Shown: positions 1 through 3,000 of the stretch, piece by piece
How positions within the stretch are numbered: the stretch's first letter is position 1
How the letters are laid out: every line of letters begins with the position of its first letter
Assembly (NCBI RefSeq): GCF_003334335.1
Contig: NZ_QOWQ01000001.1
Source: Escherichia coli
GTDB taxonomy: Bacteria > Pseudomonadota > Gammaproteobacteria > Enterobacterales > Enterobacteriaceae
Direction: 5' to 3' (one strand)
Length of the DNA stretch: 64,000 bases
Made by a program: the position numbers

Positions 1-3000
1 CATTAACTCTTCTGCTCGCTGGTATATTTTCGTGCGGCACATGCCAGGCGACAGGGGCAGAAGTGACGAGTGAATCTGTATTTAACATTCTTAATTCCAC
101 GGGGGCAGCAACAGATAAAAGTTATTTATCGTTAAATCCAGATAAGTATCCTAATTATCGTCTTCTGATTCACTCAGCCAAATTACAAAATGAAATAAAG
201 AGCCACTATACCAAAGACGAAATTCAAGGATTGCTAACATTAACAGAAAACACACGAAAGTTAACGTTGACGGAGAAACCCTGGGGAACGTTTATTCTTG
301 CTTCTACTTTCGAAGATGACAAAACAGCGGCAGAAACCCACTATGATGCTGTCTGGTTGAGGGATAGTTTATGGGGCTATATGGCATTAGTATCAGATCA
401 GGGAAATAGTGTAGCCGCAAAAAAGGTTCTGCTCACCCTGTGGGATTATATGTCTACGCCCGACCAGATTAAGCGGATGCAGGACGTCATTAGCAACCCA
501 AAACGACTGGATGGAATTCCCGTGCAAATGAATGCTGTGCATATCCGATTTGACAGCAACTCCCCCGTGATGGCAGATGTGCAGGAAGAAGGCAAGCCGC
601 AGCTGTGGAACCATAAACAAAATGATGCTTTAGGTCTTTACCTTGATCTCCTTATACAAGCAATCAACACTGGTACTATTAACGCTGAAGATTGGCAAAA
701 AGGTGACCGATTAAAGTCGGTTGCGCTGCTGATTGCTTATCTGGATAAAGCCAATTTCTATGTTATGGAAGATTCCTGAGCATGGGAAGAAGATGCCCGA
801 TTAAACACATCTTCCGTTGCACTGGTGACCTCTGGACTGGAACGTTTGTCAAACCTACTCTCGAAGAAAGACTCTGTTTTTGTCTCTGATTTACTACGCG
901 AAGCTAAAGTCAATGAACTGGATGAAACTCTTTCAACAACGAGGTTGAACCACCTCATAGATAAAGGTTATGAAAGAATAACGTTACAGCTTGATTTAGG
1001 GGGAGAATCCCCAGGTTATCTGGAAAAAGATAAACATTACAGAGAAGCCGATGCGGCTTTACTTAATGTTATTTATCCTACAAATCTTTCAAAGATAAAC
1101 ACCAGAAGAAAAGAGCAAGTTCTAAAAATAGTTAAAAAACTAGCAGGTCCGTATGGTATAAAAAGATACGAGAAGGATAATTATCAGTCGGCAAATTTTT
1201 GGTTCAATGATATTAAAACCGATACCGATCAAAATTCGCATGCAAAAAGAGAAAAGAGCTTCATTCCATCAACAGAAGCAGAATGGTTTTTTGACTCATG
1301 GTATGCAAAATCAGCAGCAATTGTTTATAAAGAATCAAGAAAAGAAGAGTATTTGAATGACTCAGTACAATTTATGAATAGATCATTGGCCCAAATAACA
1401 GGCGAGAATATGATTGGTGCAAATGGCAGGAGCGTACCAGAAATGGCACTTCCCGAAAGCTATAACTATATCCACAAGTCGGGAACTTTGCATGAAGCGC
1501 CAAGCCCTATCATTCCGCTAAATTGGTCGAAAGCTTCAATGACTCTCATGTTGAAAGAGATGTCCAACCTTATCAATGATGAGGGAATTAAATAGTTTTC
1601 ATAATGAGTTACAGCACAACGTTGGGTATTGACTGAGCAAGATGAACGACAAGGACAACGACATCAGCCTTATGAGGAGCAAGAAAATGAAAGCAAATTC
1701 GAAAACGATCAGAAGGATGAAAGTTAATGTTCGGTCTGAGGAAAGTAAATCGAAACACTCATACGTTTGAAACCACTTTTCAAAATTGGAAAGAAAATGG
1801 CGAAGATGTTGCATTATTAATGCCCGAATTTAGTGCTAAATGGCTACCGATAGCAGAAGAGAGTGGCAGCTGGTCTGGATGGGTATTGCTTGGAGAAATA
1901 TTTCCCTTAATTTCATCTGAGCTCGCTGGGATGGCTTTAATGCCAGAAACGGAAAGGTTAATAGGGGAATGCCTCAGTTTATCCAGTTCCCCGTTAAATC
2001 TAAAGCATCCTGAACTAAAATATAATCGTTTGCGCGTAGGTAAAGTATTTGATGGAGTATTGAGCCCTGCTCAACCACTAATAAGAATATGGACAGGGGA
2101 ATTGAATCTTTGGTTAGATAAAGTCACAGTCTGCCAATACGGAAACGCTCCAGCGTTAGACAAAAAATCGTTATATTGCTCCATTCATTTTGTAATTGGA
2201 TTTAGTAAAACATGTTACAGAAGTCTTGTTGATATTGAAGTTGGTGATGTTTTATTAATCTCAAATAATTTGGCTTATGCGGTTATTTATAATACAAAAA
2301 TTTGTGATTTAATTTATCCAGAGGAGTTAAAAATGGCTGATCATTTTGAGTACGAGGAAGATTTTGAAACAGATGATTTTGATATCAAAAAAAACGAGAG
2401 TGAGATTTATGATGAAAATGACGATCAGATGATTAATAGTTTTGAAGACTTGCCTGTAAAAATTGAGTTTGTTCTTGGTAAGAAAATAATGAATCTATAT
2501 GAAATAGACGAACTCTGTGCAAAAAGAATAATATCTCTGCTTTCTGAATCTGAGAAAAATATAGAAATACGTGTAAATGGCGCGCTAACTGGCTATGGCG
2601 AACTTGTTGAAGTGGATGATAAATTGGGCGTAGAGATTCATTCTTGGTTATCAGGGCATAATAATGTCAAATAGCATTTCGCTGATAGCTATACTATCAT
2701 TATTTACACTATTGCCGTTTATAATAGCATCCGGGACATATTTTATTAAATTCTCGATTGTTTTTGTTATTGTCCGAAACGCGCTGGGGCTTCAGCAAGT
2801 GCCATCAAATATGACACTTAATGGGGTTGCTTTGCTATTGTCAATGTTTGTAATGATGCCGGTTGGGAAGGAAATATATTATAACAGTCAGAATGAGAAT
2901 CTTTCATTCAATAATGTAGCGTCGGTTGTTAATTTTGTTGAGACAGGCATGAGTGGTTATAAATCATATTTGATAAAATATTCCGAACCGGAGTTGGTTA

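Follow-up and report, generated by a model that had tools for sequence, protein, structure and literature searches.

The window (the whole 64,000-nt stretch of Escherichia coli DNA analysed here) opens inside the glyU-linked ETT2 island, 16 nt into the coding sequence of the GH15-family glycoside hydrolase gene that follows glyU. Its first 24 kb are 100% identical to E. coli P13-6, with the order glyU, ygeQ and onward to yqeF. The GH15 gene (pkgA, equivalent to ygeQ plus ygeP of K-12) occupies positions 1-1595 on the plus strand, as defined by its ORFs, by alignment to positions 1668-3270 of the undeleted locus of O157:H7 strain C1-057 (L001) and by PGAP names; the window edge cuts off its 5' end, and its TAG stop lies at 1593-1595. 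Two plus-strand ORFs, at 63-779 and 825-1595, belong to one gene in a single frame that is interrupted by an in-frame TGA at 777-779. This codon is GGA in loci where the gene is intact, and the G>T nonsense change (GGA>TGA) makes the window copy a pseudogene; K-12 ygeQ carries the identical nonsense codon. PGAP names the same DNA either 'glycoside hydrolase family 15 protein' or ygeQ plus a hypothetical protein. Among other strains, the gene is intact (536 aa) in B1-type, C-type and IMT16316 alleles, the O157 copy is frameshifted, and IS421 and IS1 lie within the gene in some cases.

A spacer of 131 nt (1596-1726) separates the GH15 stop from the epaO ORF. The initial annotation had placed a GH15-like gene about 130 nt upstream of sctQ, and this distance is correct, with GH15 ending at 1595 and epaO beginning at 1727. 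The spacer is not, however, simply an intergenic junction. Its first 13 nt (1596-1608, plus strand) are retained GH15 3' flank and hold, at 1600-1608, the left copy of an imperfect repeat, CATAATGAG. The remainder, 1609-1727 on the plus strand, corresponds to the 3' end of eivJ, the spaN/invJ homologue that encodes the SctP needle-length determinant, and comprises its last 39 codons and the TAA stop (1725-1727), in a reading frame that begins at 1608. In tblastn, residues 151-189 of EivJ match window 1608-1724 with 94.9% identity (E 1.5e-20), and PGAP labels identical DNA 'SpaN/EivJ family, incomplete, missing N-terminus'. The O157 EivJ protein at full length matches the SpaN model NF011862 (E 3.5e-10), and the 39-residue remnant had no match in the NCBIfam search; the remnant is identified from the tblastn comparison to the full-length O157 protein and from the PGAP name. 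The 131-nt 'spacer' is better annotated as an eivJ remnant. A minus-strand ORF at 1599-1814 (71 aa), which overlaps both the remnant and the epaO start, is unsupported and was taken as spurious.

Downstream lies a retained block of apparatus genes. The sctQ/spaO homologue epaO (1727-2674, plus strand, 315 aa) matches NF006018, the NCBIfam YscQ/HrcQ model, at 489.5 bits (E 2.9e-147) and TIGR02551 (SpaO_YscQ) at 195 bits, and its ATG overlaps the eivJ stop in the sequence TAATG. It is followed on the same strand by epaP (sctR, 2664-3329), epaQ (sctS, 3339-3599) and epaR (sctT, 3601-4368), all intact according to their ORFs and to PGAP on the 100%-identical DNA of locus L006. The next gene, epaS (sctU, 4377-5497, plus strand), is broken into ORFs at 4377-5108 and 5105-5497 and is called 'frameshifted' by PGAP. 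The rest of the block spans 5559-10373 and was delimited from ORFs together with PGAP on L006, whose coordinates were shifted by minus 3000 to give window positions. It contains a small lipoprotein gene ('invasion protein', 5559-5852) and etrA (5854-6354), both on the minus strand, followed by eprH (6611-7792), eprI (7806-8045), eprJ (8065-8397), eprK (8394-9128), a frameshifted orgA (9144-9724) and an orgB-like gene (9666-10373).

Comparison with two undeleted loci, O157:H7 C1-057 and IMT16316 (L004; its ETT2 is almost free of pseudogenes), shows what has been lost between GH15 and epaO. Alignment to L001 places window 1-1608 at 1668-3270 and everything from window 1609 on at 12008 and beyond, so that L001 3271-12007, a segment of 8,737 bp, is missing between two adjacent bases of the window, 1608 and 1609. 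In both undeleted loci the order is GH15, a GhoT/OrtT-like gene, eivF, eivG, eivE, eivA, eivC, eivI, ECs3728, eivJ and epaO; GH15 is therefore not directly beside epaO in an intact island, an adjacency that would have spoken against a deletion. The lost genes comprise the GhoT/OrtT-like gene, the invF-like activator gene eivF, and those for the secretin SctC (eivG), the gatekeeper (eivE), the export gate SctV (eivA) and the ATPase SctN (eivC), together with the SpaM-like eivI (SctO; match to NF011863, E 1.5e-8), ECs3728 and all of eivJ except its last 39 codons. When all ten O157 proteins were used as tblastn queries against the 64-kb window, only EpaO and residues 151-189 of EivJ gave matches, with none for EivF, the secretin, the gatekeeper, the export gate, the ATPase or the SpaM-like protein. 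The initial annotation had read the interval 1596-1730 as the scar of a deletion that removed the ATPase, export-gate and secretin genes, with an endpoint close to the junction. The comparison bears this out, the breakpoint falling inside that very interval and eivC, eivA and eivG being gone, and it extends the loss to the regulator eivF and to the small toxin-like gene.

This last gene, of the GhoT/OrtT family (ECs3735, ydcX-like, 59 aa), lies at L001 3324-3503, flanked by GH15 and eivF. It does not belong to the T3SS and is seldom named among the genes of the lost block. The NCBIfam search gave no match for the 59-aa protein, and its identification rests on the O157 tblastn comparison and the PGAP name.

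The arrangement is widespread. We surveyed 5,426 complete E. coli genomes with a 90-mer spanning the junction (window 1564-1653) and found the exact 90-nt junction, contiguous, in 1,932 of them (35.6%), most at 100% identity; an assembly artefact as the source of the arrangement is thereby ruled out. The deleted block was at least 80% present, and scored as complete, in 972 genomes, and about 43% present in about 360 more, which carry a different deletion of approximately 5 kb that fuses the 5' part of eivF to the 3' part of eivA. Because the sum of the junction-bearing and block-bearing genomes (1,932 + 1,335 = 3,267) is near the number with any flank match (3,247 and 3,318 for the flanks), the two sets are essentially disjoint.

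Deletions of this kind have been described before. A 2024 review (PMC11068852) reports ETT2 isoforms in which 4.99, 5.68 or 8.74 kb is deleted at the island's right end; the 8.74-kb isoform, lacking eivJICAEGF, is attributed to Ren et al. 2004 in PMC5422975 and to Wang et al. 2016 in PMC11068852, and Leimbach et al. is cited for the isoform being already known. The window fits this description: eivF, eivG, eivE, eivA, eivC and eivI are absent, eivJ is truncated, and epaO-S and eprH-K are kept. The island is the same glyU-linked one, the same genes are lost, and the measured 8,737 bp corresponds to the reported 8.74 kb; we found no substantive difference. According to PMC5422975, Ren et al. 2004 noted small direct repeats at the ends of the eivJICAEGF deletion, which we assume to be the repeats found here. 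The window isoform is thus the previously described and very common one and not a new event, a correct rediscovery; the 8.7-kb deletion is a known stage, and a very common one, in the attrition of ETT2 by mutation, and the window is the K-12-like, phylogroup A version of it. Overall, we put the probability that a chromosomal deletion of 8,737 bp in the glyU-linked ETT2, equivalent to this known common isoform, left its scar at 1596-1730 at about 93%.

The undeleted ETT2 loci share gene order and homologues with the Salmonella SPI-1 inv/spa operon (invFGEABCIJ-spaOPQRS), with EpaO matching the SpaO/YscQ models, and EivJ and EivI weakly matching the SpaN and SpaM models; even intact ETT2 loci have no annotated invB equivalent. 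Set against SPI-1, the window lacks the whole equivalent of invF to invJ except for 39 codons. Taken together, the remnant of eivJ and the fact that the missing genes follow the SPI-1 order show that the long form is ancestral and the window deleted. The opposite polarity, in which the window would preserve the ancestral state and the eiv block would be an insertion gained by O157- and 042-type strains, has in its favour only that the short form is the commoner, in 1,932 genomes against 972 with the full block. It is effectively refuted by the eivJ remnant, since 39 in-frame terminal codons with a stop overlapping the epaO start are what remains of a complete gene. The block, moreover, consists of core apparatus genes in the SPI-1 inv/spa order and has no mobile-element ends at its flanks, and we give an insertion virtually no credence.

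The structure of the joint bears on how the ancestral form was shortened. Breakpoint contexts were taken from the four loci without the 8.7-kb deletion (L001, L004, JS316 or L003, and strain 789 or L005). In all four, the left context is TTTTCATAATGAG followed by GCGGTCC, the GH15 3' flank running on into the hairpin GCGGTCCTGGATTAAAAGGACCGC, which the window lacks; the right context is CACAATGATG followed by TTACAGC, that is, CCCAACACAATGATG followed by TTACAGCACAACG. The window reads directly from TTTTCATAATGAG into TTACAGCACAACG, and this clean joint is that of the deleted loci. The initial annotation suggested looking for short direct repeats at the breakpoint; in these four loci both ends carry an imperfect repeat, CAYAATGA(T)G. 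Both breakpoints lie within the repeat, which has CATAATGA-G as its left copy and CACAATGATG as its right copy. The copies agree at 9 of 11 positions when aligned, strict microhomology is limited to 1 nt (G) at the joint itself, and the 5-nt match AATGA between the copies is offset by one base. In the comparison of loci we found no IS element, IS terminal repeat or other foreign DNA at the joint.

Given a joint free of IS or foreign DNA and breakpoints within a short repeat, the most likely mechanism would be RecA-independent illegitimate recombination between short repeats, by replication slippage or microhomology-mediated joining. The event brought together a point 13 nt past the GH15 stop and one that precedes the end of eivJ by 39 codons. 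The product expected from simple slippage is AATGATGTTACAG, whereas AATGAGTTACAG is observed; the one-base offset of the repeat means that simple slippage does not fully account for the joint.

We also considered whether the deletion might be IS-mediated, like the IS2-associated loss in K-12, or the same lesion as that of ETT2sepsis in strain 789. Insertion sequences are frequent in the island (IS421 and IS1 in GH15, IS2H in K-12), and ETT2sepsis is described in PMC4313913 as having 'a large internal deletion'. Likeness to the window is real: ETT2sepsis, from APEC O78:H19 strain 789 (Ideses et al. 2005; Huja et al. 2015, PMC4313913), is reported as a degenerate ETT2 in the same island, and it shares a large deletion in the eiv operon, further pseudogenes and the lack of a secretin and an export gate. 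Direct comparison of the loci nevertheless refutes either version of this proposal, which we consider highly improbable. The window joint is seamless and contains neither IS sequence nor an IS terminal repeat, and IS2H of K-12 replaces window 1122-9325, another interval. The lesion of strain 789 is a different deletion of approximately 5 kb that leaves GH15, the GhoT-like gene, a 5' piece of eivF, the 3' end of eivA, eivC (with an internal stop), eivI and eivJ in place; an identity of the window with ETT2sepsis was rejected since eivC, eivI and eivJ, present in strain 789, are absent or truncated in the window. This fusion of the eivF 5' end to the eivA 3' end is seen in both JS316 and 789, at about 7840-8510, and is the ETT2sepsis-type pattern of the roughly 360 genomes with 43% of the block.

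The flanks of the deletion raise the separate question of whether an identical 8.7-kb deletion arose more than once, in A-like and B1-like lineages, with the CAYAATGA(T)G pair acting as a deletion hotspot. Haplotypes were compared across ten loci, with 1.6 kb of left flank. On this side the deleted window allele is closest to the undeleted O157 allele, at 15 differences, and the deleted loci L007-L010 are closest to the 789/JS316 allele, which still has eivC, eivI and eivJ (9-17 differences), lying 26-31 sites from the window. Such a pattern speaks for recurrence, and PMC5422975 refers to the block as 'often deleted'. The right flank, by comparison, is roughly star-like among the ten loci, and in neither flank of these loci did we find a SNP specific to the deletion. 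The flanks are mosaic, which fits a single event followed by recombination in the flanks and fits recurrence at the same repeat as well. Against recurrence, both deleted groups share one sequence over approximately 110 nt on the left side of the joint and 200 nt on its right side, in keeping with one event and later recombination in the flanks. One 90-mer, moreover, matches all 1,932 junctions, most at 100%, and separate slippage events at a strict microhomology of 1 nt should not yield the odd joint of AATGAG to TTACAG again and again. We regard recurrence as unlikely; if true, it would mean parallel reductive evolution of a T3SS instead of one inherited event.

The deletion of the eiv block leaves epaO as the first complete gene after the scar, and its start deserves comment. 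In window-type DNA, PGAP flags epaO (sctQ) as 'frameshifted' (window 1687-1765), because O157 lacks one A that the window has at 1761. Of the nine other non-K-12 loci examined, all but O157 have this A, among them IMT16316 with its nearly intact island. Two SNPs of RM9387, at 1738 and 1744, are synonymous in the frame that begins at TAATG and protein-altering in the frame read from the upstream ATG of O157. Because the A is widespread, the start overlaps the eivJ stop and the RM9387 SNPs follow this pattern, the window epaO probably has the original frame, and the O157 allele would be the frameshifted one, rescued by an upstream ATG. When the two N-termini were compared against NF006018, both aligned to the profile ends, with the O157 version scoring slightly higher. 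In other words, the window epaO is probably an intact 315-aa ORF, and the 'frameshifted' label in such strains probably arises because the O157 protein served as reference.

In B1-type deleted loci, epaO carries an internal stop, as does epaP in one strain. These lesions, together with the frameshifts in epaS and orgA of the window, are consistent with continuing decay after the deletion.

A secreting injectisome requires SctC, SctV and SctN. The full core set of a functional SPI-1-family injectisome comprises SctC, SctV, SctN, SctQ, SctR, SctS, SctT, SctU, SctD, SctJ, SctF and SctI. The window has lost SctC, SctV, SctN, SctW, SctO and most of SctP by deletion, and SctU and OrgA are frameshifted. 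With the secretin, export gate, ATPase, gatekeeper, stalk and ruler lost and epaS and orgA disrupted, the established roles of T3SS core components imply that the remaining epa/epr genes are unable to form a secreting injectisome. For this strain, one of the roughly 36% of complete E. coli genomes with the isoform, the scar shows an ETT2 that cannot work as a secretion system. Beyond correct annotation its import is small, the scar being ordinary in E. coli.

Expression of what remains may also have been affected. The GH15 pseudogene now leads straight into the eivJ remnant and epaO, and epaOPQRS has lost both the upstream part of its native operon and the GC-rich hairpin found after GH15 in undeleted loci. 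Its transcription would then need read-through from the GH15 pseudogene or a weak internal promoter. A scan of positions 1-3000 predicted no terminator between GH15 and epaO and gave 13 promoter-like sites, against 9.4 ± 3.0 expected, and nothing in it points to a new promoter at the joint. For ETT2sepsis, a different isoform, a non-secretory role is claimed (PMC4313913; PMC6030553), and by analogy the truncated island may be retained through a non-secretory role of the surviving inner-membrane parts.

The window also bears on the history of the ETT2 remnant in K-12. The aligned parts of the window and K-12 MG1655 are 99.96-100% identical, including both flanks of the K-12 remnant (ygeF-ygeO, IS2H, ygeP, ygeQ), and window 1-1121 is 100% identical to ygeQ/ygeP. 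K-12 has IS2H in place of window 1122-9325 (8.2 kb). The two differ in that IS2H joins ygeP to ygeO in K-12 with no epa or epr genes, whereas the window retains the 3' part of GH15, the junction, epaO-S, etrA, eprH-K and the part of orgA that K-12 lacks. From these alignments, the K-12 remnant looks like the product of a further 8.2-kb, IS2-associated loss from a window-like isoform, and the window would then represent its immediate precursor state.

Elsewhere in the window, the Rfam core sRNAs OmrB and OmrA (in tandem on the plus strand, 29302-29585), ES036/CssrF (59508-59550) and GcvB (62566-62771) lie at K-12-syntenic positions, with nothing unusual about them. The window has one gene for initiator tRNA-Met, at 58004-58080 on the minus strand, compared with three in tandem in K-12 (metZ, metW and metV), and the alignment of this region to K-12 looks like a collapse of two 110-bp repeat units.
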